Assembly: GCA_001775395.1 (NCBI GenBank)
Contig: MEWP01000069.1
Coordinates: 16,114 to 80,113, forward strand
Source: a candidate division Zixibacteria bacterium RBG_16_53_22
Lineage (GTDB): Bacteria > Zixibacteria > MSB-5A5 > UBA10806
Length of the DNA stretch: 64,000 nt
Direction of reading: 5' to 3'
A model generated the notes under the pieces. It saw only the letters and a program-made list of their open reading frames with translations. It ran no database searches and was not told where the DNA came from. Within the stretch, counting starts at the first letter, position 1, and each line of letters starts with the position of its first letter. The position numbers and the translations under genes were made by a program. This document shows positions 23,836 through 52,721 of this stretch, in pieces.

Positions 23836-23836
23836 A

Positions 23837-26827: not shown

Positions 26828-26831
26828 TCGA

Positions 26832-28004: not shown

Positions 28005-28027
28005 TAATTTTGGGAAAGGAGACCGTT

Positions 28028-29344: not shown

Positions 29345-29494
29345 GATCGCAGGCGATCAATTTCCCGGCACCGATAATCATGCCCGGCATCGGCAAAAGA
29401 TCCGGGGGCCATTCACCACAACCACATAGGGCGGTCTAGAGACCGCCCTATGGCATCCTATGAGCAAGGCAGCAAAACGAAAGGAGAAAAAGAC

Positions 29495-37078: not shown

Positions 37079-38269
37079 TTGACAACTATAAAAACCGATA
37101 TGGGAAACGTCACTTACGCCCAGACGATGTCAAGTATCGAAAAGCTCTTCGACGACCTGACATTTGAATATGTCAGACAATGGAAAGCGAAGTTGCCATC
37201 GCGCCGCGTGATAGGATTTCTGCCAATATACATTCCCCGTGAAATTATTCATGCCTGCGGCATGCTGCCTGTGGGCATTTTTGGCGCCGGTGATCGCATT
37301 CCCGTTGTCCGCGGCGATGCCTATTTTCAGTCGTATATCTGTCATCTTCCCAGAACGGTCGTGGAATTGGCGTTATGTGGCAATTTCGGCGATTTTGATG
37401 GCTTCCTGTTTCCCTCGATCTGCGATGTTATTCGTAACTTATCCGGAATATTCAAGCTGCAGTTCGAAAATAAACTCGTTCGCTATCTCGATTTTCCGCA
37501 AAATTTCGATCCCGAAGTCGGAGGCGTCTTTTATCGCCGCATTTTGGACGATCTGATCAATGACCTATCCTCCCTCAATGGCCTTCGTCCAACTAATAAC
37601 AACCTCAATGAATCGATCGCCGTTTACAACCGAAGCCGCCGGCTTTTGCTGGACCTGGTTCGGCTCCGCACCGAAAAACCTCACCTTTTAAGCGCTGTCG
37701 ATTTCTACAAGCTGCGGCGGGCCGGAAACACTCTGTCGGTTGAGGATTTCAATGCCCTGCTTGAGAATCTGCTTCAATTCGTGGGGCAAATTGACGCGGA
37801 GCCCGAAGACAAAATCCGGGTAGTCGTAACGGGAGCCTTCTGCGAACAACCGCCTTTGGGGCTTATCAAGACCATCGAGAATGCCGGTTGTTACATTGTG
37901 GATGACGATTTTCAACTTGGGCTGACCTGGTTTTCCCAGGATATCCCCGATTATTCTGACGATCCGCTGGGCGCCCTTGTGGAAAGCCTCCTGGAACTTA
38001 AGACTTTCTCGTCGGCCGTGTTCGAGGATGATCGAATGCGGGGCGAGCTTTTGGCGGAACGAGTATTGGAGCGCAAGGCCGATGGAGTCATATTCTGCGC
38101 TCCCAGTTTCTGCGATCCCGCTCTCCTTGACAGGCCGATCCTGGAACGGGCCATGAACAAACATCATATCAAGCATACAAGTCTCCAATACCATGAAAAT
38201 CTCGGCCAGTTCCATGTGATCAAAGAACAAGCCGGGGCATTTTCCGACATGATTAAGCTCTGGGAGTGA
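37079..38269 (+). CDS. bcrC: class I benzoyl-CoA reductase subunit C
   Basis: PIYIPREIIHA, GDAYFQSYICHLPR, FPSICDVIRNLSG, FCEQPPL, APSFCDPALL, EQAGAFSDMIKLW. The start may be 37100 or 37127. Confidence 0.92.
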   Translation: MTTIKTDMGNVTYAQTMSSIEKLFDDLTFEYVRQWKAKLPSRRVIGFLPIYIPREIIHACGMLPVGIFGAGDRIPVVRGDAYFQSYICHLPRTVVELALCGNFGDFDGFLFPSICDVIRNLSGIFKLQFENKLVRYLDFPQNFDPEVGGVFYRRILDDLINDLSSLNGLRPTNNNLNESIAVYNRSRRLLLDLVRLRTEKPHLLSAVDFYKLRRAGNTLSVEDFNALLENLLQFVGQIDAEPEDKIRVVVTGAFCEQPPLGLIKTIENAGCYIVDDDFQLGLTWFSQDIPDYSDDPLGALVESLLELKTFSSAVFEDDRMRGELLAERVLERKADGVIFCAPSFCDPALLDRPILERAMNKHHIKHTSLQYHENLGQFHVIKEQAGAFSDMIKLWE

Positions 38270-39576
38270 ACGTGGAAGTGCAAAAAGAAAGCAGCATGAT
38301 AAAACAAAAGCAGATGCTTGCCGAGCATTTCATGGAACTATCCCAGGTGCGCGAAACCGGGCGCAAAGTGGTCTATACCTTTGTTCCAGGCAATCTGGCC
38401 GAATTCGTTTCAACCTTCGACATGCTTCCAGTCTATCCTGAAATTAACGCCCTGCAATCGGGGATGCGAAAAAAATCGGAGGAATATATCCGTGAGGCCG
38501 AAGATATCGGCTATTCCGAAGATGTTTGCTCCTATGTCAAGTGCGATATCGGCATGATGCTCCAGGGCAACATCGGCCCTACCGGCCAGCGGCTTCCCGC
38601 GCCTGACATCCTGCTGTTGAGTTACACAGGCTGTTTTGTTTTCATGAAGTGGTTTGAGAACCTAAGGCATCTTTATCCCAACACCGAGATCGCCATGCTC
38701 CACGTCCCCTATCAGGAGGCCGGACGGATTGAACCAGCGGCGGTCAAATATGTCAAGGACCAGCTTATTAAAAGTGTCATACCGAAATTTGAGAAGGTCA
38801 GCGGTCAAAAGTTTGATATTGACAAGCTTGGCCGGAAATTGGAGCTGGCGGCCCAGGCCGAAAATCTTCTGGTAGATATTTTTGATTCCGCCAGGCATCG
38901 ACCCTCGCCGATTGACGCCTATTTTGGCGGGGTCTACTACATCGGCCCGATTTTTACCGCCTTCCGCGGTAATGAAGATTGCATCGATTATTACCGGGAA
39001 TTGAAAGCGGAAGTTGATTACCGCGTTGCCAAAAAACTTGGCCCCATCACGCCCGAAGGGCATTTGGAAAACGAGCGCTTCCGGCTGGTGGTCGAGGGGC
39101 CTCCCAATTGGACGCATTTCCGGGATTTTTGGAAAATGTTCTACGACAGAGGGGCAGTGTTTGTCGGCTCAAGTTACACGCGAGTGGGTGGCGTCTACGA
39201 TGACGGTTTCAGGCATTCGTCAAAGGATCCCCTGGCAAGCCTGGCTGAGTATTGCATGGGCTGTTATACTAATCGCAGCCTGCCACAAAGGATCAGCCTC
39301 TTGGAGAGATTCATTAAAAACAATCACGCTGATGGGCTGTTAGTCAACTCGATTAAAAGCTGCAATTCTTTCTCGGCTGGCCAACTTGTAATGATGCGTG
39401 ACCTTGAGGCAAGGCTCGGCATTCCGGTCGGATTCATCGAAACTGATCTTGTCGACCCCCGATATTATTCGTTTTCGAACATCAAAAATCGCCTCGATTC
39501 ATTTTTCCAGATGCTCGAGCAGCGGCAATCGATATGGATTGGCGATGACTCATTATCGGATGATGTCCTGGCATGA
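38266..39576 (+). CDS. bcrB: class I benzoyl-CoA reductase subunit B
   Basis: TFVPGNL, EDVCSYVKCDIG, LLLSYTGC, EGPPNWT, SIKSCNSFSAGQ, ETDLVDPRY. Confidence 0.92.
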   Translation: MNVEVQKESSMIKQKQMLAEHFMELSQVRETGRKVVYTFVPGNLAEFVSTFDMLPVYPEINALQSGMRKKSEEYIREAEDIGYSEDVCSYVKCDIGMMLQGNIGPTGQRLPAPDILLLSYTGCFVFMKWFENLRHLYPNTEIAMLHVPYQEAGRIEPAAVKYVKDQLIKSVIPKFEKVSGQKFDIDKLGRKLELAAQAENLLVDIFDSARHRPSPIDAYFGGVYYIGPIFTAFRGNEDCIDYYRELKAEVDYRVAKKLGPITPEGHLENERFRLVVEGPPNWTHFRDFWKMFYDRGAVFVGSSYTRVGGVYDDGFRHSSKDPLASLAEYCMGCYTNRSLPQRISLLERFIKNNHADGLLVNSIKSCNSFSAGQLVMMRDLEARLGIPVGFIETDLVDPRYYSFSNIKNRLDSFFQMLEQRQSIWIGDDSLSDDVLA

Positions 39577-39625
39577 GAGGTAAGCATATGATATCGGCGA
39601 AAATTAGATCGCAAGAGGGCCTGCG

Positions 39626-40918
39626 ATGAAAGTATTCTTAGGCATTGACTTGGGCTCAACGACATCGAAAGCGGTGCTGGTGGATGCCACCGGAAAGATC
39701 ATTGGCCGGGGCATCACCAATACCCGTTCCAACTATGCGGCGGCTGCCAAAATTGCACAGGTCGAGGCCGAATTCAATTCGCGTTTTACTCTTCTGGGTC
39801 GAAAGCTAAAAGAGAACGCCTCCAACGGCTTTCAATGGGATACCCTGATTTCCGTTCTTGAAAACAGATTCTACTACCTGCAATTTCTGGCACGCTACGA
39901 CCAGCTCTTGGAAGCGATGACCCGCGAGGCCGAAAATATTTCGCGGCCGGATATTCGGGAGAAGATAATTGAGATTCTTCCTGCGGTGGCCGATCAGGTC
40001 CGCGAACGTGTGCGTGGTCTCTTTTTTGACGGCAGCGTATCTACCACCTCGCAGTTCTTCCGCGATCTGTTCAGCACTGCCTATGCGAGGGTTATCGAAA
40101 GCTTCGAGGCCGGTTTATTCGATCAACTTCTGGCCCTCTATGACCGCTGCATTACGCCTATTGAGAATCATCAGGCCGACTGCGAGTTTGGCACGCTCGT
40201 GGGGCAGGCATTAGATGAATTGCCCGAAGAATATAAGAATCAGCGAGAAAAAATCGGATCCTGCCTTGGCGAAATATCGCAAATCGATCTAAATCCGGCC
40301 GATCATGTGGGCACCGGCTACGGCCGCCAGCTTTTGCCTTTTGAAGAGAAGCATATCAAGTCGGAGATTCTCTGTCATGCCATGGGGGCCCACGATATTT
40401 TCCCCGGGACGCGCACGGTTTTGGATATTGGCGGCCAGGATACAAAGGCGATTCAAGTCGACCAATATGGCCTTGTGACCAGTTTCCAGATGAATGACCG
40501 CTGCGCGGCCGGCTGCGGCCGCTATCTCGGATATATAGCGGACGAGATGAGTCTAAGCGTCGGCGAGTTGGGAACGCTGGCGGCCCAAGCCAATCATGCG
40601 ACTAACATTTGCAGCACCTGCACGGTGTTTGCGGGAGCGGAACTTCGCGAATACCTGAATCTGGGCGAACGCAAGGAAAACATATTGGCGGGGCTGCATC
40701 GGGCGATTGTTCAGAGGGCTTTCGCGCTTATCGCCCGTTCCGGAGGGGTTCGCAATGAGTTCACCTTCACTGGTGGAGTAGCGCGCAACCCGGCGATAGT
40801 AAAATATGTCGGCCGTATGGTAAAAGAAAATTACGGTGAAATAACTATCAACTGTCACCCTGATTCGATATTCATGGGCGCTTTAGGAGCCGCTCTGTTC
40901 GCAACCAGGAGAATATGA
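39626..40918 (+). CDS. bcrA: class I benzoyl-CoA reductase subunit A (ATP-dependent activation module)
   Basis: GIDLGSTT, GRGITNTRSNY, long helical insert, GTGYGR, DIGGQDTK, MNDRCAAGCG, STCTVF. Confidence 0.92.
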   Translation: MKVFLGIDLGSTTSKAVLVDATGKIIGRGITNTRSNYAAAAKIAQVEAEFNSRFTLLGRKLKENASNGFQWDTLISVLENRFYYLQFLARYDQLLEAMTREAENISRPDIREKIIEILPAVADQVRERVRGLFFDGSVSTTSQFFRDLFSTAYARVIESFEAGLFDQLLALYDRCITPIENHQADCEFGTLVGQALDELPEEYKNQREKIGSCLGEISQIDLNPADHVGTGYGRQLLPFEEKHIKSEILCHAMGAHDIFPGTRTVLDIGGQDTKAIQVDQYGLVTSFQMNDRCAAGCGRYLGYIADEMSLSVGELGTLAAQANHATNICSTCTVFAGAELREYLNLGERKENILAGLHRAIVQRAFALIARSGGVRNEFTFTGGVARNPAIVKYVGRMVKENYGEITINCHPDSIFMGALGAALFATRRI

Positions 40919-41745
40919 ATTCGCCAAATCTGACACTTGGAATCGATGTGGGCAGCAGCGCCGTTAAGATGGCGCTCGTCGACTATGGAGCCTTGCCTGA
41001 AGTCATCGAAGTGATCAATGAAAGGATTCGCAAACGGAATCCCGCCCATGTCATCGCAACCGGGCTTCAGCGATTGCTGGAGTGTCATGGGCTTGTTTAT
41101 GAGGATTTGCTTTATGTGGCATCAACGGGCGAAGGCGAGCTTGTCTCAAGAAAGCGCGGTCATTTCTACAGCATGACTACCCATGCCAAAGGAGCCTATC
41201 ATTATCATCCCGAGGCGCGCACGGTGGTCGATATGGGAGCCTTATTTTGTCGCGTAATCTCTCTTAACGGCTCCGCTCAGGTGCACAGCTATGCCATGAC
41301 CGGTCAATGCGCCTCAGGATCCGGTCAGTTCCTCGAAAATATCACTCGTTATTTGGGTGTTACAATCGATGAGGTCGGGCCGCTTTCGCTTCGCTCGATG
41401 AATCCGGCGCGGACCAGTGGCATCTGTGCAGTGTTGGCCGAAACAGATGTAATTAATATGGTCTCACAGGGTATTCCCACACCCGACATCATCAAAGGAA
41501 TTCATCTTTCGATCTCGGGCAGGATAATTCAGCTCTTAAGCCGCTTCAAAGCCAAATCACCCGTAGTGCTTACAGGCGGCATGGCGCAGGATCCCGGACT
41601 CTTGGCCGCCTTGAAAGAACAGGCTCAGGACCGTAACTTGAAATTAGAAATATACCCCGCGAAAGATTGTGTGGCCGCCGGAGCTATCGGCGCCGCCCTC
41701 TGGGGTGGTTTCAGGCACTTCAAGCTTCTGCAGGCCAAATCATGA
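40915..41745 (+). CDS. bcrD: class I benzoyl-CoA reductase subunit D
   Basis: STGEGE, GHFYSMTTHA, QCASGSGQFLENI, ICAVLAETDVINMVS. Confidence 0.92.
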   Translation: MNSPNLTLGIDVGSSAVKMALVDYGALPEVIEVINERIRKRNPAHVIATGLQRLLECHGLVYEDLLYVASTGEGELVSRKRGHFYSMTTHAKGAYHYHPEARTVVDMGALFCRVISLNGSAQVHSYAMTGQCASGSGQFLENITRYLGVTIDEVGPLSLRSMNPARTSGICAVLAETDVINMVSQGIPTPDIIKGIHLSISGRIIQLLSRFKAKSPVVLTGGMAQDPGLLAALKEQAQDRNLKLEIYPAKDCVAAGAIGAALWGGFRHFKLLQAKS

Positions 41746-43466
41746 GCGGGCCCAGAATATGGCAGGCCGATAAGCCCTTGCCGGAATACCCGCAAAACCT
41801 GGCGTTGATGCTAAATCGGAACGTTGAGCGCCTTGGAGACAGGCCGCTCTATCAGGAGGCACTTAACGGCCCGTACACGACATTGAGTTGGCGGGATTTT
41901 CAGCGGGATATCGTTTCCATTCAGGATTCGCTGACCGAGCATGGCTTAAAGCCCGGTGACAGGGTGGCAATCCTTTCGCCTAATCGGAAGGAGATGCTGG
42001 AATTTGAACTTGCAGTGATGTCGATGGGAGCTGTAGCGGTCCCCATTTTTGCTGGATACCCGTCCCACCAAGCAGAGATGTTGATTGAATTCTGTGACCC
42101 GCTGATGATTGCGGTTGCCGACACCGAACAATACCGAAAGTTGGCATTTCCCCATAAATATCGACTTATTGTCCACTTCGATAAGCTTGAATGCCAATTG
42201 CACCACAATACAATTTTGCTCTCGAAGCTTATATCGAGCGCCTCTTCCGGAAAAATTCTGGGGGAGGAAGTGGCCAGGGACACAACCTGTCTCATGATGT
42301 ATACCTCCGGAACAATGGGGAAACCCAAATGCGTACAATTGACTCATGATAATATCATTTCTCAGCAAGCAGCAATGCAGATGCTGTGGCAAATTGATAA
42401 CAATGACCGGCTGCTTTCCTATTTACCATGGCATCACAGTTTCGGAGGCATCTTTGAAAAATATGCGGCCTTGTACAACGGCGCCCTCCTATCGCTTGAG
42501 CATGGCTATGGCAAAAATATCGAGGTGCTTCTTGAAAACTGGATCCGGGTCAAGCCAACCACATTTTTCAGTGTCCCCAGAGTTTACCAGCAGCTTACTA
42601 CCCAGGTTCTCCGGAATCCATCCCTGGAGCGGGAGATATTTCACGACCAATTGCGCTTCATTTTCACGGCGGCGGCGCCTCTTCCCAAGAGCATTTCAGA
42701 TCACTTTCAAAATCGCGGCATTCCGGTTTATGAGGGCTGGGGTCTCACTGAAACATCGCCCTGCTGCACGATCTCAGATCCTTCTATTCCGCGCGAGCCG
42801 GGGGTAGTTGGAAAACCTATACCGGGCGTTATCCTGAAGCTGGCGGAGGATGGCGAGATTTTCGTAAAAGGGCCTAATGTCATGAGGGGGTATTTTCGAA
42901 ATCCCGAGGCAACCGAAATCGCTATCACCAAGGATCACTGGTTTGCCACAGGCGATGTTGGCGATTTTGTCGATGCCGGACTGCGTTTGATATCCCGTAA
43001 GGACCGGATTTTCAAATTGAGCAACGCCGAGAAGGTGGTGCCGACCGAGATAGAAAACCTCATATTGGAAAACTGCTCTTTTCTGTCGCACGCTTATGTG
43101 ACGGGAAGCGGCAGGGATTTTCCCGTTGCTCTCCTTTTTCCCAATAAGGCAATGCTTGCCGGAAAACCGGATGAATCTCGAATAAAATCAGGCTGCCACT
43201 GTCCGGAAAATATGCCCGATTTGGCGCATTGCCTGGAACACTGCCTGAAAAAGCTAAGTGAAAATATCGATGCCAGATATATGCGGCCTCTGGCGGCGAT
43301 GTTGATCGACTATGAGCTTTCAATTGAAAAAGAGGAATTGACGCCGTCGATGAAACTGGCTCCAAATACCATCGCCAGTGTTTTTAAAGCCAAAATTGAA
43401 TTGCTCTATAACGGAAACGGCCAAGTCAACGACTCTAAAGACGTCTATATCCTGATTTGGGAGTGA
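41742..43466 (+). CDS. AMP-forming acyl-CoA ligase (long-chain FACL-like)
   Basis: MYTSGTMGKPK, YLPWHHSFG, EGWGLTETSP, ATGDVG, SRKDRIFK. Confidence 0.88.
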   Translation: MSGPRIWQADKPLPEYPQNLALMLNRNVERLGDRPLYQEALNGPYTTLSWRDFQRDIVSIQDSLTEHGLKPGDRVAILSPNRKEMLEFELAVMSMGAVAVPIFAGYPSHQAEMLIEFCDPLMIAVADTEQYRKLAFPHKYRLIVHFDKLECQLHHNTILLSKLISSASSGKILGEEVARDTTCLMMYTSGTMGKPKCVQLTHDNIISQQAAMQMLWQIDNNDRLLSYLPWHHSFGGIFEKYAALYNGALLSLEHGYGKNIEVLLENWIRVKPTTFFSVPRVYQQLTTQVLRNPSLEREIFHDQLRFIFTAAAPLPKSISDHFQNRGIPVYEGWGLTETSPCCTISDPSIPREPGVVGKPIPGVILKLAEDGEIFVKGPNVMRGYFRNPEATEIAITKDHWFATGDVGDFVDAGLRLISRKDRIFKLSNAEKVVPTEIENLILENCSFLSHAYVTGSGRDFPVALLFPNKAMLAGKPDESRIKSGCHCPENMPDLAHCLEHCLKKLSENIDARYMRPLAAMLIDYELSIEKEELTPSMKLAPNTIASVFKAKIELLYNGNGQVNDSKDVYILIWE

Positions 43467-44671
43467 TGATGAGCCGCCTACGTTCACAGGATAAACTTAA
43501 ATCGATCCTTAAGGATTATTTTGTCTGCCTCTCATCTCCTTTGGCCTGGTGTACAAGTGTCGGTCCGGCGGAAATACTGCGGGCGCTTGGATTTAACGTG
43601 TATTTTCCGGAAAATCATGGGGCGCTTTTGGGAGCCTCGCGCACGGCAGGAAAGTATATACCCAGAGCGCATCAAGCGGGCTATGATGACGAAATCTGTT
43701 CGTATTTGACAGCTGACATCGGCGCCTACCTCATGGGTGAAACCCCGCTCTCCCAGGCCTACGGCTTGCCCTCGATACCCCGTCCCGATCTCATCGTTTT
43801 CAATACCAATCAATGCCGCGAGGTGGCGGAGTGGTTTGGATTTTTCGGACGGGAATTTGGCTGCCCGGTGGTCGGCATTATGCCTCCCAGACACATAACT
43901 GAAGTATCTCAAGCCGACATCGACAACGTTGTCGGGCAGTTTGAAAAGGCAATAAAGATCGGCGGCGAGATTATGGGTAGGCCCTTGGATTACGGCCGGC
44001 TAAAGGAAACTGTCGCCCTAAGCAAGCAGGGCGCGGTCCTCTGGAGGGAGGTCCTGGAAACGGCGCGAAAGGCGCCCTCTCCCCTAACTTTCTGGGATGG
44101 GACGATCCTCATGGCTCCCATCGTCATGCTACGCGGGACACAGGTTTGTGTTGATTTCTACCAGGAGATGCTTGATGAGCTGCGGCAGCTCATGAATGCC
44201 AAACAGGCCGCCGTACCCGATGAGCAGGTCCGGCTGTTTTGGGAAGGCATGCCCATCTGGGGACGTCTTCGCGCCCTATCTGATCTTTTTGCCGAAAACC
44301 ATGCTGCTGTTGTGGCCTCAACCTACTGCAACAGTTGGGTCTTCGATTGCTTCAACCCGGAAGACCCTTTGAGATCGATGGCCGAGGCCTATACCAGGGT
44401 TTTCATCAATCGCAGCGAGGATGCCAAGCTCGGCATATTACGCGAATTACTTGATAACTATCATATCGATGGCATAGTTTTCCATGACTCAAAAACATGC
44501 TTTAATAACACCAATAGCCGATTTAACCTTCCGGGGAGATTGCAGAAAGCAACAGGTGTGCCGTCGCTGACGATCGATGGCGACTTGAATGATCTTCGCT
44601 TTTTCTCAGAAGGGCAGGTTCGGACAAAAATTGAGACGTTCGTTGAATTACTGAAAACGCTAAAGCAGTAA
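43466..44671 (+). CDS. 2-hydroxyacyl-CoA dehydratase-family subunit (HgdA/FldB/BcrB superfamily)
   Basis: PENH, ICSY, NQC, EGMPIW and KTC Fe-S Cys set; TIDGDLND. ATG overlaps the ligase stop (TGATG). Confidence 0.85.
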   Translation: MMSRLRSQDKLKSILKDYFVCLSSPLAWCTSVGPAEILRALGFNVYFPENHGALLGASRTAGKYIPRAHQAGYDDEICSYLTADIGAYLMGETPLSQAYGLPSIPRPDLIVFNTNQCREVAEWFGFFGREFGCPVVGIMPPRHITEVSQADIDNVVGQFEKAIKIGGEIMGRPLDYGRLKETVALSKQGAVLWREVLETARKAPSPLTFWDGTILMAPIVMLRGTQVCVDFYQEMLDELRQLMNAKQAAVPDEQVRLFWEGMPIWGRLRALSDLFAENHAAVVASTYCNSWVFDCFNPEDPLRSMAEAYTRVFINRSEDAKLGILRELLDNYHIDGIVFHDSKTCFNNTNSRFNLPGRLQKATGVPSLTIDGDLNDLRFFSEGQVRTKIETFVELLKTLKQ

Positions 44672-44697
44672 GAAAATGCGAAGCGGGAGCAGAGTAA

Positions 44698-45672
44698 ATG
44701 AACCAGAATAACAACAACGGTAATTTGCGGGTGGGGATTATCGGTACCGGCCCCGTGGGAACGATCCTTACCGCCCACCTCAAGGAAGCCGGTGCCCTGG
44801 TGGTGCCCTGTGATGTATTTGCCCATAAAATCAATGCCATCAAGAAGAAAGGCATTCGGCTCACTCACACAATCGAGAAGAAGGTGGCTATCCATGAAGC
44901 CTGTTATTCCGTTCAAGAGCTTGGTATGTATGATCTAGACCTGGTCATTATCGCGGTAAAGACCCCTGATCTCAAGAAGGTAATAGGCCAGATTAAGGAT
45001 ATTGATAATGGCAGGCTGTATGTGATGTGCGCCCAGAACGGGATCGATAATGAAATTGAAATCGGTCGCGAATTTGGGGATCATCGCAGCCTTCGCATGG
45101 TGATAAATTTCGCTGGCAATGCGGCTGACGATCATACCATTCATGTGAGCTTTTTCAACCCGCCAAATTATGTGGCGGCTCTCGCCGACGGCGGCAATGA
45201 AATGGCGCGGCGCTTTGCAGATATGCTCAATTCGGTGGGTCTTGAAACCGAGATTCCCCTCGATATCCAAGACCATGTCTGGGCCAAGGCGATCTTAAAT
45301 GCCGCCTTGAGCGCCGTCTGCGCCATCACACGCCAGACGATGAAGGAGGTTATGGACTTCCCTGCCACCTTCGAACTGGTCGAGGGACTCATTGATGAAT
45401 CTGTGCGCGTGGCCGAGAAAGAAAGGATTGACCTTGGCAGCAAGTTCACGCGATTCAGCATTCGTTATTTGAAGAATGCCGGCCACCACAGGCCGTCGAT
45501 GCTTGTCGATCTGGAAAATGGGTATCCAACGGAGGTCGATCAGCTCAATGGCCGGATAGTGCAATACGGCAGGAAACATTGCCTTCCCACCCCCTTAAAT
45601 CAATCGGTCACAGCCTTGGTTCATTTGCTCGAACATGCCGCCAAGAAAAATTGCGAGAGCGAAGCAAAATGA
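44698..45672 (+). CDS. PanE/ApbA-family 2-oxoacid reductase (ketopantoate reductase-like)
   Basis: GTGPVG, AVKT, AQNG, WAKAILN, PSMLVDL...TEVDQLNG. Confidence 0.85.
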   Translation: MNQNNNNGNLRVGIIGTGPVGTILTAHLKEAGALVVPCDVFAHKINAIKKKGIRLTHTIEKKVAIHEACYSVQELGMYDLDLVIIAVKTPDLKKVIGQIKDIDNGRLYVMCAQNGIDNEIEIGREFGDHRSLRMVINFAGNAADDHTIHVSFFNPPNYVAALADGGNEMARRFADMLNSVGLETEIPLDIQDHVWAKAILNAALSAVCAITRQTMKEVMDFPATFELVEGLIDESVRVAEKERIDLGSKFTRFSIRYLKNAGHHRPSMLVDLENGYPTEVDQLNGRIVQYGRKHCLPTPLNQSVTALVHLLEHAAKKNCESEAK

Positions 45673-46484
45673 ATGGGTCTTTCCTTGGCATAGATCTTGG
45701 CTCATCCTACACCAAATTCATCGTCATTGATGAAGGAGCAATAATTGTCGATGCCGAGGTTATCCCCACTCTGAGCAGGCGCCGCGAAGTTCTAGATAAA
45801 GCCATGTCCGGAATACTGAGTCGTTTTAACATCCAGTGCATCTGCGCTACGGGTTATGGCCGGCGAAATGTTCAGGCGGACCTGCATAAAACTGAATTGA
45901 TATGCGCCGCGGCCGGAGTCTCTGTAACTCACAAGATGCACAAGAGTATTCTGGATATCGGGGGCGAGGACATCAAGATAATCGAAAGCGATGCCAACGG
46001 AAGCGTAGTTGATTTCTATATGAACAACAAATGCTCGGCGGGGACCGGCACTTTTATCACAGAAATTGCCGATCGGGCCGAACTGGATATTGCCGAGATG
46101 AGCACGCTGGCAAGTAAATCAAAATCGGATCGCACCATCAACAGCTTTTGCACGGTATTCGCCAAAAGCGAAATTTTAGGCTGGAAATTCGGCGGAGTCC
46201 CTATTGAGGACATCGCACGAGGAATTTATCTGGCGGTTGTTGATCGGGTGCACAAGTTGCCATTAAAAAAGGGAATGCCATTGTTTTTATGCGGCGGCGT
46301 AATTGCGCATCATCCTTTCCTGGCTGGGCTTTTGGCGGAAAGGCTCCAGGCGGATATCAGGGTGGTAGAGCAGCCGCAGTACGCCGTGGCTCTGGGGGCG
46401 GCCCGGTTGGCTCAAGAGGAAATGATGTCAGCAAAGCCGGTGCGCGAATCACCCTGGATAACACGAAAATTGTCAAAGACATGA
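45669..46484 (+). CDS. ATP-dependent [4Fe-4S] activase (HgdC/FldI/HadI-like)
   Basis: GIDLGSS, ATGYGR, DIGGEDIK, MNNKCSAGTG, NSFCTVFA. Confidence 0.88.
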   Translation: MNGSFLGIDLGSSYTKFIVIDEGAIIVDAEVIPTLSRRREVLDKAMSGILSRFNIQCICATGYGRRNVQADLHKTELICAAAGVSVTHKMHKSILDIGGEDIKIIESDANGSVVDFYMNNKCSAGTGTFITEIADRAELDIAEMSTLASKSKSDRTINSFCTVFAKSEILGWKFGGVPIEDIARGIYLAVVDRVHKLPLKKGMPLFLCGGVIAHHPFLAGLLAERLQADIRVVEQPQYAVALGAARLAQEEMMSAKPVRESPWITRKLSKT

Positions 46485-46528: not shown

Positions 46529-47599
46529 ATGATGAAAATTACGGGATATCAGATGACCGCCAAGGATGCGCCATTTGAAAAAGTGGAATTGCCGGTTTCC
46601 GAAATAAAGGAGGGGGAAGCCCTGGTCGAGGTAGCCGGATGTGGGGTATGCCATACCGATGTAAGTTTCTGGCATCATGGCGTGCCCACCCGCCACCAAT
46701 TGCCGTTGATTTTGGGCCACGAGATTGCCGGCACCGTAATCGAAGGACCGGCGCCTTTGAAAGGGAAGCCTGCCATTGTGCCGGCGGTTCTGCCTTGTGG
46801 TGAATGCGGGCTCTGTAAAAGAGACCGCAGCAATATCTGCCAGAGCCAGAAGATGCCAGGTAACGATTTCCATGGCGGCTTCGCCAGCCATGTACTGGTT
46901 CCTTCGCGCTTCCTTGTGCCTGTCCCAGAATCTGCCCTGGCCGACCATTCGCTGGCTGAACTTGCGGTAATTGCCGATGCCATCTCGACGCCCTATCAGG
47001 TAATCGTCAAAAGCTCTCTGATGCCGGGTGATCTGGCAATCGTAATAGGTGTCGGCGGAATAGGCATTTACGCTGCACAACTGGCGAAAATAATGGGCGG
47101 CAAGCTTATCGCCATAGATATTGCCCAGGAAAAACTGGATCAACTTAAAGCATTCGGCGTTGAAACCACAATCAACGCCAAAGAACTTGACATCAAAGGC
47201 ATCAAGAATCGTGTCAAGGAATACTGCAAGGAATTAGGGGCGCCATCGCATAGTTGGAAAATATACGAAACCTCCGGCACCAAGGCAGGCCAGGATTTGG
47301 CCTTTGCCCTGCTTGGCACAGCCGGGACATTATCTGTTGTCGGCTTCACGCTCGATAAACTGGAACTTCGCTTAAGCAACCTCATGGCATTCGATGCGAC
47401 TCTCATCGGAACCTGGGGTTGTAAGCCGGAACTCTATTCATGCGTCATCGATCTGGTCTCCCAGAAAAAGCTGGCCATCAAGCCGTTTACTGAAACGCGG
47501 CGTCTGTCGCAAATAAATGAGGTGTTTCAGGAGACCATTGGCCATAAGCTCTTAAAAAGAACTGTCCTGGTTCCTGATTTTTTGGATCGGCGACCTTGA
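46529..47599 (+). CDS. had: 6-hydroxycyclohex-1-ene-1-carbonyl-CoA dehydrogenase
   Basis: GCGVCHTD, LGHEIAG, QKMPGNDFHGGFASH, WKIYETSGT, RLSNLMAFDA, WGC; GGAGG RBS. Confidence 0.92.
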   Translation: MMKITGYQMTAKDAPFEKVELPVSEIKEGEALVEVAGCGVCHTDVSFWHHGVPTRHQLPLILGHEIAGTVIEGPAPLKGKPAIVPAVLPCGECGLCKRDRSNICQSQKMPGNDFHGGFASHVLVPSRFLVPVPESALADHSLAELAVIADAISTPYQVIVKSSLMPGDLAIVIGVGGIGIYAAQLAKIMGGKLIAIDIAQEKLDQLKAFGVETTINAKELDIKGIKNRVKEYCKELGAPSHSWKIYETSGTKAGQDLAFALLGTAGTLSVVGFTLDKLELRLSNLMAFDATLIGTWGCKPELYSCVIDLVSQKKLAIKPFTETRRLSQINEVFQETIGHKLLKRTVLVPDFLDRRP

Positions 47600-47655
47600 T
47601 TGGAAAATCATGTGAAGATATTAGGCAATTCAATTGGGAAAAGAGGGATGAAATT

Positions 47656-48753
47656 ATGAATCATGGGCTTTTTAGTCATAACATCGTCGAAACTCAGTTT
47701 AAAGAGATCCTCTACGAGCTTCGCCCCTGCCTTGATAAAAAAGGGAATCCAGCCCCAGGGCTATACAATGCCTGGATAAGTCTGAACAATCCGGCCCAGT
47801 ACAATTCATACACTACGGCTGCAGTGAAGGAAATTATTCTGGCCATGCGCCAGGCCTCAAATGAGCGTTCTGTCGTGGCTATCATCTTTACTGGGGCAGG
47901 CGATAAGGCCTTCTGCACCGGGGGAAACACCAAAGAATATGCCGAATACTATGCCGGTCGGCCCCTTGAATATAAGCAATACATGCGGCTTTTCAATGAC
48001 ATGATAACATCGATTTTGATGAACGATAAGCCCGTGATTTGTCGGGTCAATGGCTTGCGAATAGCCGGAGGCCAGGAGTTAGGCATGGCCTGCGACCTGA
48101 CAATCGCCAGCGACATGGCGGTCTTCGGCCAGGCGGGTCCCAAGCACGGCAGCGCCCCCGATGGCGGCAGCACAGACTTTTTGCATCTTTTCGTAGGCGT
48201 TGAGCGGGCTATGCAAAGCTGCACCTTATGCGAAATGTGGAGCGCCTATGAGGCCAGACAGCTTGGCCTGATCAGCGAAACTGTGCCCGTGCTTAATGTG
48301 AATGGAAAATTCGTCCGCAACCCTCTTGTTACCACCGATCGCTGGCTGGATGATGCGGGAGATATAATCTATGGACACCGGAAGACTGGTGAGGCTTTAA
48401 AGGCGGCCAAGGAGTTGATTTCCCAGGGATGTATCGACCTAAAACCCCTGGATGATGCCGTTAATTCATTGGCAACAAAATTATTATATACCATGCCCGA
48501 TTGTATCAGCAAAACCTTAAATAGTCTCCGAAAGAAAAAACTTGAACATTGGGATCGCAATCAGCAAAGCAATCGCGACTGGCTGGCTTTAAACATGATG
48601 ACCGAGGCCAAGGCCGGTTTTCGGGCATTCAACGAGGGTCCTAAAGACAACCGCGAGGTCGACTTTGTGAAGCTTCGTCAGATGCTCTCAGAGGGGCATC
48701 CCTGGGATGATGAGCTTGTCGAAGCGATCCTGCCGAGGAAAACTGATGGCTGA
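47656..48753 (+). CDS. oah: 6-oxocyclohex-1-ene-1-carbonyl-CoA hydrolase
   Basis: NNPAQYNSYTT, CTGGNTKEYAEYYAG, GSAPDGGSTDFL, WLALNMMTEA. Confidence 0.93.
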   Translation: MNHGLFSHNIVETQFKEILYELRPCLDKKGNPAPGLYNAWISLNNPAQYNSYTTAAVKEIILAMRQASNERSVVAIIFTGAGDKAFCTGGNTKEYAEYYAGRPLEYKQYMRLFNDMITSILMNDKPVICRVNGLRIAGGQELGMACDLTIASDMAVFGQAGPKHGSAPDGGSTDFLHLFVGVERAMQSCTLCEMWSAYEARQLGLISETVPVLNVNGKFVRNPLVTTDRWLDDAGDIIYGHRKTGEALKAAKELISQGCIDLKPLDDAVNSLATKLLYTMPDCISKTLNSLRKKKLEHWDRNQQSNRDWLALNMMTEAKAGFRAFNEGPKDNREVDFVKLRQMLSEGHPWDDELVEAILPRKTDG

Positions 48754-49522
48754 CAAAATTCTCACAGAATATTTTTGCGATCGTCAGGTGGTGCGCATTA
48801 CGCTTAATGCCCCCAAGGCGAATATTCTAGATGCCGCTATGATGAGCGAGATAGCGGCCGAACTGCGCGCTCTAAAGAGCGAACCTGCGGTCAAGCTTTT
48901 GGAATTTTGCGCGACGGGCGATCATTTCAGTTTTGGGGCCAGTGTCCAGGAGCACACCCGCGAACAGGCTCCGCGAATGCTTGATCAATTCCATGGCCTG
49001 TTTCATTCACTTATCGATCTGGCTATTCCCACAGCGGCCCTGGTTTCGGGGCAATGCCTCGGAGGGGCGCTGGAATTGGCCCTGATGTGCAATTTCCTCT
49101 TTGTCGATGAGACTGCCAAGCTTGGACAGCCCGAAATTAATCTGGCCGTTTTCGCGCCGCCCTCGTCTCTTATTCTCCCGCTTAAGATCGGGCAGGCAAG
49201 GGCCGATGCGCTTTTGCTTACGGGCGCCAGCATCAGTGCGGCGGAGGCCCTTGCGGCCGGCCTGGCATTCAGGGTATTTGCATCTCGGGAGGTCATGCAG
49301 CAAAAGGTAGACGAATGGGTTCAAAAGGAAATTCTCCCGAAAAGCGCTTCTTCGCTTCGCTTTGCGGTAAAAGCGGCACGACATTTATTCAACGATGCTC
49401 TCACGGAGCGCCTTAAAAAAGTCGAACGGATGTATTTGTCGGAACTAATGAATACGCATGACGCCAATGAGGGAATTGCGTCGTTTCTGGAGCGCCGTCC
49501 GCCGATCTGGGAAAACAGGTGA
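48746..49522 (+). CDS. dch: cyclohexa-1,5-diene-1-carbonyl-CoA hydratase
   Basis: PKANILD, HFSFGASVQEH, QCLGGALE, GQPEINLAVFAP, THDANEG. Confidence 0.88.
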   Translation: MADKILTEYFCDRQVVRITLNAPKANILDAAMMSEIAAELRALKSEPAVKLLEFCATGDHFSFGASVQEHTREQAPRMLDQFHGLFHSLIDLAIPTAALVSGQCLGGALELALMCNFLFVDETAKLGQPEINLAVFAPPSSLILPLKIGQARADALLLTGASISAAEALAAGLAFRVFASREVMQQKVDEWVQKEILPKSASSLRFAVKAARHLFNDALTERLKKVERMYLSELMNTHDANEGIASFLERRPPIWENR

Positions 49523-49531: not shown

Positions 49532-50269
49532 ATGGAATTTGAGGGAAAATCAGTCATTGTCACAGGCGGTGCCCAGGGAATCGGGCAGGCAATCGCCTTG
49601 CGATTTGCATCCGCGGGAGCGCGAATTTCGATATTGGACGTCGACGTCAGCAATGCTTCATTTCCAGGGTTTGAGGATTCGATTTGCCTGTTCTCCGGAG
49701 ATGTCGCCAATTCGCTCGACGTTGAAAGGTTTGTATCAGATGTGGCCAAGAGAACCGGCCGCATTGATATATTGGTAAATAACGCCGGTATCATTCGCGA
49801 CAACGTTATCTGGCGGATGTCCGAAGATGAATTTGATTCGGTTTTGCGGGTAAATCTCAAAGGTCCGTGGCTCTTAAGCAAACAGGTGATTCCCATTATG
49901 AAAGGCCAGGATTACGGGCGAATCGTCAATATTGTCTCGCGCGCCTGGCTTGGAAATTTCGGCCAATCCAATTATTCCTCGTCAAAGGGGGGGCTGGTTA
50001 GTTTAACGCGGGTGTTGGCCCTGGAACTGGCCCGCTTCAATATCACTGTCAATGCTGTGGCTCCAGGATTGATTGATACGCCGATGACCCGAAGCCTTTC
50101 GCCAGAGACATTCGATAAACTTATAGCGGCCCAGCCCGGCAAACGTGCCGGCAAACCCGAGGATATCGCCCACGCGGTGGCCTTTTTTGCATCTCAGGAG
50201 GCAGGCTTTATCTCCGGCCAGGTGCTCCATGTCGATGGTGGCAAGAGCATTGGATCGACAGTTTTCTAA
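49532..50269 (+). CDS. SDR-family 3-oxoacyl-CoA/ACP reductase (FabG-like)
   Basis: TGGAQGIG, NNAG, YSSSK, NAVAPG. Confidence 0.88.
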   Translation: MEFEGKSVIVTGGAQGIGQAIALRFASAGARISILDVDVSNASFPGFEDSICLFSGDVANSLDVERFVSDVAKRTGRIDILVNNAGIIRDNVIWRMSEDEFDSVLRVNLKGPWLLSKQVIPIMKGQDYGRIVNIVSRAWLGNFGQSNYSSSKGGLVSLTRVLALELARFNITVNAVAPGLIDTPMTRSLSPETFDKLIAAQPGKRAGKPEDIAHAVAFFASQEAGFISGQVLHVDGGKSIGSTVF

Positions 50270-50296: not shown

Positions 50297-51472
50297 GTGA
50301 GAAATGTCTATCTGCTTGATGGCTGTCGGTCTCCGATTGGCCGGGGGCATCCCGAGAAGGGAATGTACCGTAATATCCGGGCCGATGACCTCCTGGCACA
50401 AATTCTAATAAGACTTCTCAATAGACTACAAGTTGATCCTGCCAAGATCGATGATTTCTATCTGGGATGCGTCGGTCAGCATCTGGAACAGGGGAAAAAT
50501 CTGGCGCGATTAGTCATATTGCTTGCCGGTCTGCCGGAGACTATTCCCGGTGTCACCATAAATCGTCTGTGTGCCTCAAGCCTTACCGCCCTACAGATGG
50601 CTGGCGACAGCATTCATTCTGGAACCAACGAGCTTGTCATGGTGGCCGGCGTCGAACACATGGGGCATATCCCCATGGCCGCAGCACTCGATTATCATCC
50701 CCGGCTTTTTGCCGAAAGCGAATTTCAATGGACCAATATGGGTTTAACTGCGGAAAAGCTTGCCACCAGGTATTGTATCTCGCGGGATGAACAGGACGAT
50801 TTCACATTGGAGAGCAATCGCCGCTATTTCAAATCCCGCGAAAATGGCCATTTCGATAACGAAGTTGTTCCCGTGGTATCGAAGGACGGCACCCTCATTT
50901 CTACCGACGAAGAACCACGCTTATCAACTTTGGAAACGCTTTCGATGCTGAAGACGGCATTCAAAGAGAATGGTACGGTAACTGCCGCAAATAGCTCTGG
51001 CATATCCGATGGAGCCTGCGCCGCGTTGGTTTGCGGCGAGGATTTTGCCGATGCCCTGTCAATCCAACCGCTTGCGAGAATAACGACCACGGCCAATATC
51101 GGCCTTGACCCCACGATGATGGGACTTGGCCCCGTGCCTGCCATCAGGAAACTCCTAAAGAATACCGGATTGTCGCTTGACGACATCGATTTGTTTGAAA
51201 TAAACGAAGCTTTTGCAGTTCAAGTGCTGGCCTGCCAAAGGGAACTTGGTATTGACTCCAACCGCCTTAATATCAAGGGCGGAGCAGTGGCCCTGGGGCA
51301 CCCACTCGGCATGTCGGGGCTGAGGATAGCTGTTTCATTGGCTCATACAATGAAAAGCAGCAATGTTAGCCGGGGCATTGCCGCCATGTGCGTCGGGCAC
51401 GGCCAAGGCGTGGCAATGCTTTTGGAAAGAGGCCCAAGTATCAATTCCACCCTTCCGGGGGCCAACGAATGA
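50297..51472 (+). CDS. thiolase (acetyl-CoA C-acyltransferase)
   Basis: NRLCASS, NEAF, GHPLG, MCVGHG; GTG start with GGAGG RBS. Confidence 0.9.
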   Translation: MRNVYLLDGCRSPIGRGHPEKGMYRNIRADDLLAQILIRLLNRLQVDPAKIDDFYLGCVGQHLEQGKNLARLVILLAGLPETIPGVTINRLCASSLTALQMAGDSIHSGTNELVMVAGVEHMGHIPMAAALDYHPRLFAESEFQWTNMGLTAEKLATRYCISRDEQDDFTLESNRRYFKSRENGHFDNEVVPVVSKDGTLISTDEEPRLSTLETLSMLKTAFKENGTVTAANSSGISDGACAALVCGEDFADALSIQPLARITTTANIGLDPTMMGLGPVPAIRKLLKNTGLSLDDIDLFEINEAFAVQVLACQRELGIDSNRLNIKGGAVALGHPLGMSGLRIAVSLAHTMKSSNVSRGIAAMCVGHGQGVAMLLERGPSINSTLPGANE

Positions 51473-51503: not shown

Positions 51504-52721
51504 ATGGGAATGAAAGATATCCCCGTAGCTTATTCGCGGGCTCGCATACCTTATGGAACATGGGGCAGCAGCTATTTCCCGGCCTGGCAAACATCCCCCC
51601 TGGCTGAGGTCAATATCGGCCAGTTTGCAGGAGAGTCGATGAATCGAATCATGGGATTGAGAAAAGTCCCAATCGATGAAATGGATATTCTGATAATTGG
51701 CTCGACCATCCCCTGGCACTGGAAATTTTGGACAGCCCCCGTGGTGGCTAGTTGTATGGATCACCGAATTCCTGGTTATCATGTCGAACAAGCCTGCGCC
51801 ACCGGGCTTCAGGCTGTAATGGTTGCCGCTGCCGAAGTTGAATCCGGCTCTCATGATGTTGTCGGCGTGCTGACATTCGATCGCACCTCCGATTCGCCGG
51901 TGGGGGTATTCCCAGAACGGCGTACATATCAACGTACATACGCGCTTTCCGATGTCTGGGACAATTTCGGTTTCGACCCCGCCACCGGCAAGGCCATGCT
52001 CACTTGTGCGGGCTTGGCAGCTCGAAAATACCGCCTCGATCGACGGGAAGTTGATGAGTCAGCGGCGTTCCGCTATGAGCAATATTTTAATGCCAAGGCC
52101 AAGGGATTCTTAAATAAGGTCCTTGTTCCCCTTGAGATATTGAATATTCAGGGCAAATCAATGGGCTGGATTGATGATGACCTTGGTGTCCGCCGGGTTA
52201 CTGTAGCCGGCTTAACGTCTATGAGGGAGCTTGATACCTGCGTGACACCGGGAACACAAACTCACGCTTCCGATGGTATGGCAACGCTTCTTGTCACCGG
52301 CCCCGAAAAAGCCCGGCAGCTCAGCCTTAGGCCCGAGATCGATATTCAGTTTGTCGGCAAAACTGAAATCCGCGCCTATCCAAGCCTGATGCCTGAAGCC
52401 CCGGCTCTGGCAGTTCAAAAGCTGCTCCAGCGCACGGGCCTGACCATGTCCGATATAGTGGTTGCCAAAGATCATAATCCATTTGCCGTCAATGATATCA
52501 TTTTCTCAAAGCTTCTTAATTATGATTGGAAGAATATGAACAACAACGGCTGCCCATTAGTCTGGGGTCATCCACAGGGTCCGACTCTGACCCGGGTTAT
52601 CATTGAGGGCCTGGAAGAGGCCGTGGAATTAGGCGGCGGCTATGTCCTGATATTTGGTTGTGCTGCAGGCGATGTCGGCATAGCGGCAATCTTCAAAGTG
52701 AGCGATGGAGGCATGAGATAG
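51504..52721 (+). CDS. divergent thiolase-family protein
   Basis: QACATG, HNPF in place of NEAF, GHPQGPT, GCAAGD. Confidence 0.8.
   Translation: MGMKDIPVAYSRARIPYGTWGSSYFPAWQTSPLAEVNIGQFAGESMNRIMGLRKVPIDEMDILIIGSTIPWHWKFWTAPVVASCMDHRIPGYHVEQACATGLQAVMVAAAEVESGSHDVVGVLTFDRTSDSPVGVFPERRTYQRTYALSDVWDNFGFDPATGKAMLTCAGLAARKYRLDRREVDESAAFRYEQYFNAKAKGFLNKVLVPLEILNIQGKSMGWIDDDLGVRRVTVAGLTSMRELDTCVTPGTQTHASDGMATLLVTGPEKARQLSLRPEIDIQFVGKTEIRAYPSLMPEAPALAVQKLLQRTGLTMSDIVVAKDHNPFAVNDIIFSKLLNYDWKNMNNNGCPLVWGHPQGPTLTRVIIEGLEEAVELGGGYVLIFGCAAGDVGIAAIFKVSDGGMR

Follow-up and report, generated by a model that had tools for sequence, protein, structure and literature searches.

Analysis of a 64,000-nucleotide stretch of contig MEWP01000069.1 from candidate division Zixibacteria bacterium RBG_16_53_22 (the window, with positions counted from its first letter) showed that a gene of the HGD-D family, here called HGDx, lies downstream of a complete class I benzoyl-CoA reductase (BCR) together with genes for an acyl-CoA ligase, a ketopantoate-reductase-family (KPR) oxidoreductase and an activase. 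The four genes ligase-HGDx-KPR-activase form a conserved module. We favour, with a little less than even confidence, the reading that the module encodes a homodimeric, ATP-activated 2-hydroxyacyl-CoA dehydratase (HAD), which probably acts on aryl-lactyl-CoA and feeds benzoyl-CoA. Class I BCRs and HADs are textbook examples of ATP-driven, ultra-low-potential radical chemistry, and to our knowledge every characterised member of this superfamily that converts a CoA ester needs a second, cluster-bearing subunit. No paper describing the module was found in the literature, and the module represents a large uncharacterised and mis-annotated family within a pathway of environmental importance.

Organization and conservation of the module

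The genes of the module are as follows.
41742-43466, + strand: AMP-forming acyl-CoA ligase, 574 aa (Pfam AMP-binding and AMP-binding_C_3)
43466-44671, + strand: HGDx, HGD-D family gene, 401 aa (Pfam HGD-D, E 5.7e-59, residues 35-399)
44698-45672, + strand: KPR (ApbA/PanE) NAD(P)H oxidoreductase, 324 aa (Pfam ApbA and ApbA_C)
45669-46484, + strand: HgdC-type activase, 271 aa, one gene (BcrAD_BadFG, E 3.6e-32)

The ligase stop and the HGDx ATG share one base, ATGA overlaps join the BcrD stop to the ligase start and the KPR stop to the activase start, and ribosome-binding sites of the GGGAG type precede the HGDx, KPR and Had starts; judged by these features, the ligase-HGDx-KPR-activase junctions are predicted to be translationally coupled. 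An initial annotation of the window had reported one HGD-D subunit and one activase at 43466-46484, downstream of a complete BcrCBAD set. The open reading frames (ORFs) and the Pfam and NCBIfam matches agree with this report, the two ends of the span being the HGDx ATG and the activase stop. The KPR gene between both, at 44698-45672, was overlooked, as was the ligase coupled upstream of HGDx, and these two genes carry most of the functional information.

Relatives were collected from one genome per GTDB species, and at least 586 stretches encoded relatives of HGDx. The best 80 of these showed 54-73% identity to HGDx, and 84 orthologous loci (L001-L084) were analysed; coverage was 64 kb of the present genome and flanks of about 10 kb in the relatives. 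The best 80 loci belonged to Zixibacteria, Marinimicrobia/Fidelibacterota, Bacteroidota, Ignavibacteria, Acidobacteriota, Calditrichota, Eisenbacteria, Lentisphaeria and others, and the 84 loci spanned about 10 phyla. The usual order was BcrCBAD - ligase - HGDx - KPR - activase - (thiolase) - Had - Oah - Dch. Where the flank was long enough, a ligase or an ADP-forming synthetase was found directly upstream of HGDx in 72 of 73 loci, KPR downstream in 73 of 77, the activase downstream in 72 of 77, and a BCR no more than 9.5 kb upstream in 51 of 57. A sister subfamily in Bacteroidota, HGDy (49% identity; L086-L088), was encoded in a cluster of the same components in a different order, and an acyl-CoA dehydrogenase is present in this HGDy cluster.

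HGDx is an alpha-type member of the BCR/HAD superfamily

Full-length domain, fold and three-Cys pattern all place HGDx in the BCR/HAD superfamily (PF06050 HGD-D). The nearest PDB entry by sequence was HadB (3o3m_A), with E values of 2e-42 by phmmer and 2.8e-53 by profile, and a profile of 25 orthologs scored 184 bits against HadB, 136 against MbdO, 113 against BzdO, 35 against DCCP and 22 against the beta subunit HadC. The AF2 model of HGDx (pLDDT 84, pTM 0.86) gave the same ranking in Foldseek, with TM values of 0.89 for HadB (3o3m_A), 0.85 for both MbdO and BzdO, 0.72-0.76 for DCCP and 0.67-0.72 for beta-type subunits; by this model HGDx is predicted to have the two-domain Rossmann-like fold common to HadB, BzdO and DCCP. 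HGDx belongs to the catalytic alpha/BcrB/BzdO clade and is nearest to the dehydratase HadB. Its identity was about 26% to HadB and 25% to BcrB of the same window, and the NCBIfam scores were 193.5 bits for the HadB model (cut-off 750), 136 for BcrB TIGR02260 (cut-off 487), 73 for BzdO TIGR03191 (cut-off 449) and 59.9 for double_cubane NF040772 (cut-off 350). With all model scores far under their cut-offs, HGDx is, as judged by sequence, the equivalog of no characterised protein. Membership of HGDx in DCCP was rejected on 5 of 6 ligand cysteines, a low NF040772 score and a TM of 0.72.

Alignment of the 84 orthologs (54-100% identity) revealed five invariant cysteines, C29, C78, C117, C288 and C345. 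The initial annotation had noted three retained Fe-S cysteines, and these are C78, C117 and C345, which align with the ligands of HadB, MbdO and BzdO; the alignment with BzdO Cys95, Cys128 and Cys380 (PMC11971306) identifies them as the canonical [4Fe-4S] ligands, and they are predicted to form a [4Fe-4S] site with one open iron site. C288 aligned with one of the cysteines that bind the cluster in the 7-Cys motif of DCCP (PMC7317905), and Arg316 occupies or adjoins the ligand position that comes next in DCCP (the alignment is one residue out of register). C29, whose counterparts are Ser44 in BzdO and a Cys in MbdO, appears by position to correspond to the first double-cubane ligand. With Cys at five of the six double-cubane positions, HGDx would represent a state intermediate between DCCP/BzdN and HadB/BzdO, and its relic cysteines C29 and C288 may indicate that it stands, in evolution, between DCCP and the catalytic subunits HadB/BzdO. 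Relatives of at least about 41% identity still have both C29 and C288, and more distant ones have lost the pair.

At the position of the catalytic BzdO His131, HGDx has Val, as does HadB (PMC11971306), and HGDx Glu49, which corresponds to BzdO Glu65, is invariant in the orthologs. Arg316 was considered as a special substrate-binding residue and rejected, since alpha-type relatives, BcrB of the window among them, commonly have Asn-Arg there.

The window BCR subunits were also aligned, each with about 50 orthologs. BcrC has five invariant cysteines (88, 115, 255, 271 and 345) and is without the first double-cubane position, and BcrB has six (88, 93, 123, 330, 333 and 366); neither of these Thauera-type patterns matches the six-Cys set of BzdN or the three-Cys set of BzdO exactly.

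A proposed homodimer of HGDx

The HADs characterised to date pair an alpha with a beta subunit and are served by an activase that is a homodimer (PMC7317905, PMC11971306), and on this premise, which holds, the initial annotation had proposed either a homodimeric dehydratase or a pairing of HGDx with BcrC or BcrB. Comparative evidence favours the first option, and HGDx would most likely act as a homodimer, while the second is disfavoured. tblastn, and profile HMMs run with --max over all six-frame ORFs of at least 60 aa, gave exactly three HGD-D genes and exactly three BcrAD_BadFG genes in the 64 kb, and by tblastn and the unfiltered profile HMMs no hidden HGD-D partner for HGDx was found within the window. 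For the window the idea of a single subunit therefore stands, as no further HGD-D member is present in its 64 kb. A cognate second subunit that is normally adjacent in relatives, as the initial annotation had allowed for, was not seen in the orthologs: no second HGD-D gene stands beside HGDx in the 84 loci, nor in the HGDy loci L086-L088 or in L085. Two adjacent HGDx-type paralogs were found in distant Gemmatimonadota relatives, both alpha-type and one without cluster cysteines.

Several unlabelled ORFs near HGDx were examined as beta subunits and rejected. Those of 370-420 aa in some Bacteroidota loci proved to be T9SS-tailed proteins or saccharopine dehydrogenases, and others of fitting size were ADP-forming acyl-CoA synthetases, not HGD-D proteins.

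A conventional beta subunit might still be encoded elsewhere in the genome, the enzyme then being an ordinary alpha/beta HAD with a split operon. The searches covered 64 kb here and flanks of about 10 kb in relatives, which leaves room for this explanation and to that extent weighs against a homodimer. A solo HGDx is, however, kept over the 84 loci and about 10 phyla, in the sister clusters and in fusions, a beta-type gene was never recruited, and the Gemmatimonadota partner protomer lacks any cluster, so that a relay cluster is evidently dispensable. We regard a distant beta subunit as highly improbable.

It is also improbable, if less so, that HGDx borrows BcrC (or BcrB) of the neighbouring BCR to give a second heteromeric radical enzyme of other specificity. 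This idea gains from the proximity of a BCR in most loci (51 of the 57 given above), from locus L063, which reads BcrCBAD-ADP-forming synthetase-HGDx with no private activase nearby, and from mirror-tree comparisons, where the correlation of HGDx with BcrC distances (r = 0.80) was as high as with any cluster protein. These comparisons of HGDx with BcrC, BcrB, the activase, KPR and the ligase gave r values of 0.48-0.80 over 18 loci, none of them with a divergent BCR, and are not discriminating.

The exchange of the BCR itself was more informative. In Marinimicrobia/Fidelibacterota some genomes carry a divergent four-subunit BCR, and comparison of L002 with L012 gave 28% identity for BcrC and 32% for BcrB, while the other cluster proteins were orthologous (HGDx 70%, KPR 73%, activase 65%, ligase 57% and Oah 77%). 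Further, the module was found without an adjacent BCR in L019, L029, L064 and L085, with unrelated genes upstream in L019 and L029. Because the BCR block was swapped while HGDx stayed orthologous, and because some loci have no adjacent BCR, pairing with BcrC or BcrB is disfavoured. The whole BCR was thus exchanged within one phylum at 28-32% identity without a change of HGDx, KPR or activase to non-orthologous forms. A private activase would moreover be redundant if BcrAD served the complex, and the extra partner in Gemmatimonadota is another HGDx-type paralog, not BcrC.

The divergent BCR-like enzyme was seen in L002-L004, L011, L013 and L016 (e.g. L002:3887-7981). Its subunits are 27-34% identical to BcrC and BcrB of the window, its BcrA is short (290 aa), its scores are under both the Bcr and the Bzd equivalog scores, and in clusters that are orthologous in all other respects it takes the place of the Thauera-type BCR; behind it comes an 81-aa ORF without NCBIfam match. 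An AFOR-family protein in L029 was considered as a class II BCR (BamB), which would have been proof of independence from class I BCRs, and was rejected as such, being a genuine aldehyde:ferredoxin oxidoreductase (354 bits for 1aor vs 187 for BamB).

Fusions of KPR with HGD-D proteins

KPR-HGD fusions were found in a library clustered at 50%. In P0122, from a Myxococcota metagenome-assembled genome (MAG), the HGD domain of the fusion retains all five cysteines, and the genes behind it encode an activase and an enzyme resembling 4-hydroxybenzoyl-CoA reductase (Hcr-like). A fusion family of about 760 aa, mostly from Gemmatimonadota (119 analysed; P0139 and P0390-P0508), has lost all the canonical cysteines, with Ser for C78, Gly for C117 and Thr, Ser or Ala for C345, and retains C29, Glu49, Asn315 and Arg316. 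The K, N and E of the KPR site were invariant in 120 KPR-HGD fusions, and position 267 was Ser in 87 and Thr in 33. Since fusions occur in Myxococcota and at least 119 Gemmatimonadota-type proteins keep the KPR catalytic residues, KPR is tied to HGDx functionally and probably physically.

In all four loci examined (L089-L092, e.g. L089:10001-15191) the fusion was followed, in this order, by an activase, an intact five-Cys HGDx-type paralog, a second activase, a ligase and Had, the intact paralog being 50% identical to HGDx. The presence of a cluster-less KPR-HGD paralog beside an intact one suggests self-association, and we infer from the sequences that the pair may be a duplicated homodimer turned heterodimer with one degenerate, KPR-bearing protomer. 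If this is right, HGDx-type proteins self-associate, KPR belongs to the complex, and the relay cluster of the partner is dispensable, so that the activase must reduce the catalytic protomer directly.

A minimal set was observed at L085:10001-16757 (Myxococcota MAG), consisting of a five-Cys KPR-HGD fusion, an activase, an Hcr-like Mo enzyme and XdhC and MobA-like genes, with no BCR, ligase or Dch/Had/Oah within 10 kb. This arrangement may point to HGDx and the Mo enzyme being directly linked.

Ligase, KPR and activase

The ligase of the window is not a benzoate-CoA-ligase equivalog and gave in NCBIfam only generic acyl-CoA synthetase matches under cut-off. PDB and NCBIfam were uninformative as a route to its specificity, with generic feruloyl-, oxalyl- and malonyl-CoA synthetase matches at about 1e-34. 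In six loci (L063, L064, L067, L069, L070 and L084) a non-homologous ADP-forming acyl-CoA synthetase stands in the place of the AMP-forming ligase upstream of HGDx, and L064 has only this synthetase and HGDx, no related gene lying within 10 kb of them. In function HGDx is thus linked most tightly to a CoA-activating enzyme, and for this reason its substrate is expected to be a CoA ester made from the free acid. The ADP-forming synthetases have about 700-730 aa with CoA_binding, Succ_CoA_lig and ATP-grasp_5 domains (e.g. L064:7692-9884); one was also seen at L086:3910-5991, and L063 has a 168-aa remnant of the AMP-forming ligase alongside its synthetase.

KPR scored 174.5 bits against TIGR00745 (cut-off 141), and the catalytic residues K197, N114, E279 and S267 are all present in the window protein. 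Its PDB relatives are 2ew2 and 3wfi, which we take to include a D-mandelate/2-ketoacid dehydrogenase. KPR is a putative reductase of 2-oxoacids to (R)-2-hydroxyacids.

The activase scored 171 bits against TIGR00241 (cut-off 125). Its C122 and C161 were invariant in 70 orthologs and align with the cluster cysteines of BcrA and BcrD, and the protein is predicted to be a dedicated HgdC-type, ATP-dependent electron-transferring ATPase with two cluster cysteines per monomer. In the closest long contig (L001:12191-12977) the activase is split into ORFs of 139 and 92 aa, by a frameshift or an assembly error, and the rest of the cluster is intact.

Comparison with characterised systems

The system most similar to the module is HadBC with HadI, LdhA and HadA of Clostridioides difficile. 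HadB is the nearest relative of HGDx by sequence, profile and predicted fold, both have the three-Cys [4Fe-4S] site and a single-gene HgdC-type activase with two cluster cysteines, and the combination of a putative 2-oxoacid reductase and a CoA-activating enzyme in one operon follows the LdhA-HadA-HadBC-HadI logic. Unlike HadBC, HgdAB, FldBC and LcdAB, however, the module has no gene for a beta (HadC-type) subunit, and HGDx is, at about 26% identity to HadB, under the equivalog cut-off and has the extra invariant C29 and C288. The reductase is of the KPR family and not of the D-2-hydroxyacid-dehydrogenase family of LdhA, CoA activation is by an AMP- or ADP-forming ligase and not by a CoA-transferase such as HadA, and the setting is the oxidative degradation of benzoyl-CoA, not the fermentation of amino acids.

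In DCCP with DCCP-R, a homodimer of this family is served by a homodimeric ATPase of its own (PMC7317905, PMC9351452), a precedent that the initial annotation did not mention and because of which the module is not a categorically new system. The module resembles DCCP/DCCP-R (CHY_0487/0488 of C. hydrogenoformans; YjiM/YjiL of E. coli) in having one subunit gene and one ATPase gene, and HGDx C288 aligns with a DCCP cluster-ligand Cys. While the 7-Cys motif of DCCP includes six [8Fe-9S] ligands, HGDx has five cysteines with a non-Cys residue at the sixth position. HGDx is also placed in the catalytic alpha/BcrB clade and, because it is coupled to a CoA ligase, unlike DCCP, its substrate is probably a CoA ester.

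With BcrB, BzdO and MbdO, HGDx shares the fold, the three cluster cysteines, Glu49 (BzdO Glu65) and an operon with a true BCR. In contrast to the four-subunit set of class I BCRs, the module encodes a single HGD-D protein and a single ATPase, so that HGDx is without its own partner of the BcrC/BzdN type and has one activase instead of the BcrA/BcrD pair; its scores are under the TIGR02260 and TIGR03191 cut-offs, and BzdO His131 is replaced by Val. HGDx is most like a HAD alpha subunit, yet without an adjacent beta-subunit gene for the alpha/beta heterodimer that defines HADs, and it differs from DCCP and BCR as well.

Proposed pathway and alternative chemistry

From gene content and family membership we infer the following route, for which the module would be self-contained and would need fewer kinds of subunit. 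Using NAD(P)H, the KPR-family enzyme would turn a 2-oxo acid into its (R)-2-hydroxy form (step 1), and the ligase would convert this acid to its CoA thioester (step 2). HGDx, as a homodimer with one substrate-facing [4Fe-4S] cluster of the HadB/BzdO type per protomer, would eliminate water by ketyl-type radical chemistry to give the 2-enoyl-CoA (step 3), for which its own homodimeric HgdC-type activase would inject one electron directly into HGDx at the cost of ATP (step 4). The favoured substrates would be aryl-lactates derived from Phe or Tyr, formed from phenylpyruvate or 4-hydroxyphenylpyruvate and converted via aryl-lactyl-CoA to cinnamoyl- or 4-coumaroyl-CoA. The clustered hydratase, dehydrogenase and thiolase might then shorten these to benzoyl-CoA or 4-hydroxybenzoyl-CoA, which the Hcr-like Mo enzyme, BcrCBAD and Dch/Had/Oah would carry further.

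Aryl-lactates are favoured because the operon starts with a HisC-family aminotransferase and the Hcr-like enzyme, because most loci hold a second thiolase and a FadB-like gene beyond the need for 3-hydroxypimelyl-CoA, and because a thiolase-like/enoyl-CoA hydratase pair is inserted inside the module in L060. The spare thiolase and FadB-like hydratase/dehydrogenase genes adjoin the activase in most loci, and in L029 the genes behind the module encode a thiolase, a FadB-like protein, an enoyl-CoA hydratase and the aldehyde:ferredoxin oxidoreductase. A route from phenyllactyl-CoA via cinnamoyl-CoA to benzoyl-CoA has only been speculated on, in a benzene degrader, in 2026 (PMC13416013).

Several observations weigh against this homodimeric aryl-lactyl-CoA dehydratase. 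HGDx is far under the HadB equivalog cut-off (193 vs 750 bits) at about 26% identity, and calling it a dehydratase over a reductase leans on modest score differences. C29 and C288 stand at double-cubane ligand positions of DCCP/BzdN, and a simple HadB-like mechanism leaves both unexplained. The KPR-dehydratase fusion joins steps 1 and 3, which are not consecutive, and KPR may act on the CoA ester or after HGDx. The aminotransferase is adjacent in three loci only, the module stands between the BCR and Dch/Had/Oah almost everywhere, where a core rather than a peripheral role is possible, and the substrate could equally be 2-hydroxyglutaryl-CoA.

The cysteines and the gene context would also fit a different chemistry, in which HGDx and the activase are an ATP-driven reductase, BCR- or DCCP-like with stoichiometric ATP, acting on the product of the ligase. 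The substrate would be a substituted aryl-CoA, with reductive dehydroxylation or dearomatisation of hydroxy- or amino-benzoyl-CoA, and KPR would reduce the keto tautomer of the product or otherwise process it. Cysteines at two distal-cubane positions of DCCP/BzdN (C288 by alignment and C29 by position) and the near-obligatory linkage to BCR and Hcr-like genes are consistent with this, as is L085, where the KPR-HGD fusion, activase and Hcr-like enzyme occur alone. The lone synthetase and HGDx of L064 fit equally a conversion of aromatic acid to aryl-CoA followed by reduction, and DCCP-R, a homodimeric ATPase, can drive stoichiometric reduction (PMC7317905). On the other side, HadB outranks the BCR catalytic subunits by sequence, profile and fold, and a reductase has no natural role for KPR, though KPR-HGD fusions span whole lineages. 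The cluster also already holds a complete BCR and an Hcr-like dehydroxylase. The Val at BzdO His131 points the same way but weakly, since BcrB of the window has Phe there. Taken together, a reductase is unlikely.

Dehydratase chemistry with (R)-2-hydroxyglutaryl-CoA as substrate is a further alternative, and we hold it to be quite unlikely. Either 2-oxoglutarate or glutamate would enter the lower benzoyl-CoA pathway at glutaconyl-CoA, or glutaconyl-CoA would be converted to 2-oxoglutarate, feeding ferredoxin reduction for the BCR. KPR, CoA activation, dehydratase and activase mirror HgdH-GctAB-HgdAB-HgdC equally, and the lower benzoyl-CoA pathway runs via glutaryl- and glutaconyl-CoA. The acyl-CoA dehydrogenase of the HGDy cluster and the replacement of the AMP-forming ligase by reversible ADP-forming acyl-CoA synthetases in some loci agree with such a role. 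The AMP-forming ligase of most loci, however, favours acid activation, and 2-hydroxyglutaryl-CoA leaves unexplained the adjacency to the Hcr-like enzyme in L085, the HisC-type aminotransferase and the side-chain-type beta-oxidation genes inside the module in L060.

With the aryl-lactyl-CoA dehydratase as the preferred reading, HGDx may tentatively be regarded as a third BCR/HAD architecture, possible rather than probable, in which a homodimer, or a pseudo-heterodimer with a cluster-less protomer, would work without a relay subunit, receive its electron directly from the activase and be physically coupled to KPR, opening an undescribed anaerobic route from aryl-lactate and aromatic amino acids to benzoyl-CoA. 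If so, the route would run via cinnamoyl- or coumaroyl-CoA and be widespread in uncultured bacteria of the FCB group, Gemmatimonadota and others. A family that dispenses with the second subunit bears on the path of the electron to the catalytic cluster, for which the cluster-less fused paralog is a natural experiment, and on how heterodimers arose from DCCP-like homodimers. Hundreds of uncultured species, from Marinimicrobia, Zixibacteria, Bacteroidota, Ignavibacteria, Gemmatimonadota and other groups, carry the module as an unannotated integral part of their cluster for benzoyl-CoA degradation. In metagenome surveys HGDx is currently labelled 'BcrC/BadD/HgdB'; counts of bcrB/C are thereby too high, and what is probably a peripheral route for lignin-derived acids or aromatic amino acids in oxygen-minimum zones and anoxic sediments goes unnoticed.

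Other genes of the operon and the window

The module is part of an unbroken + strand operon from about 31.7 to 54.8 kb of the window, whose other genes are listed below.
31671-32816, + strand: HisC-family aminotransferase at the operon head (TIGR01141, 280 bits vs cut-off 277)
32841-33875, + strand: Hcr-like Mo enzyme, FAD subunit
33872-34348, + strand: Hcr-like Mo enzyme, Fe-S subunit
34299-36719, + strand: Hcr-like Mo enzyme, Mo subunit
37079-38269, + strand: BcrC (Pfam; Bcr NCBIfam model ranks first)
38266-39576, + strand: BcrB (Pfam; NCBIfam 640 bits vs cut-off 487)
39626-40918, + strand: BcrA (Pfam; Bcr NCBIfam model ranks first)
40915-41745, + strand: BcrD (Pfam; Bcr NCBIfam model ranks first)
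46529-47599, + strand: Had (TIGR03201, 441 bits, over cut-off)
47596-48753, + strand: Oah, ORF (TIGR03200, 571 bits, over cut-off)
48707-49522, + strand: Dch, ORF (TIGR03189 top match)
49532-50269, + strand: SDR, beta-oxidation-type
50297-51472, + strand: thiolase, beta-oxidation-type
51504-52721, + strand: divergent thiolase-like protein, 405 aa
52658-54802, + strand: 714-aa protein with an enoyl-CoA hydratase domain in its C-terminal part

The top match of the Hcr-like Mo enzyme was TIGR03194, at 862 bits and under the cut-off of 995. BcrCBAD (37079-41745) is a complete class I BCR of the Thauera type (TIGR02263/02260/02259/02261), and Had, Oah and Dch (46529-49522) are, by their model matches, predicted dienoyl-CoA processing genes. 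A long ORF for Had from 46289 runs into the activase gene; the ATG at 46529/46532, which a GGGAGG ribosome-binding site precedes, is the likelier start.

The thiolase-like protein and the 714-aa protein (51504-54802) travel as a pair whose place varies: BcrC lies downstream of it in L021 and L024, the activase precedes it in L053 and L071, and in L060 it separates HGDx from KPR. The first ~430 residues of the 714-aa protein gave no match in Pfam or PDB.

Outside the operon, a cluster for reductive pyrimidine catabolism is encoded at 1210-8838 on the - strand, with a dihydropyrimidinase-like amidohydrolase, a PreA/PreT-like dihydropyrimidine dehydrogenase pair, a class III aminotransferase, a CN hydrolase of the beta-ureidopropionase type and an aldehyde dehydrogenase. 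At 21481-30376 on the + strand, genes were found for a molybdopterin oxidoreductase, a 4Fe-4S protein and an NrfD-type membrane subunit, followed by several c-type/multihaem cytochromes and a Peripla_BP_6 solute-binding protein, and a sigma-54 two-component system (17403-20649) lies upstream of the molybdopterin oxidoreductase genes.

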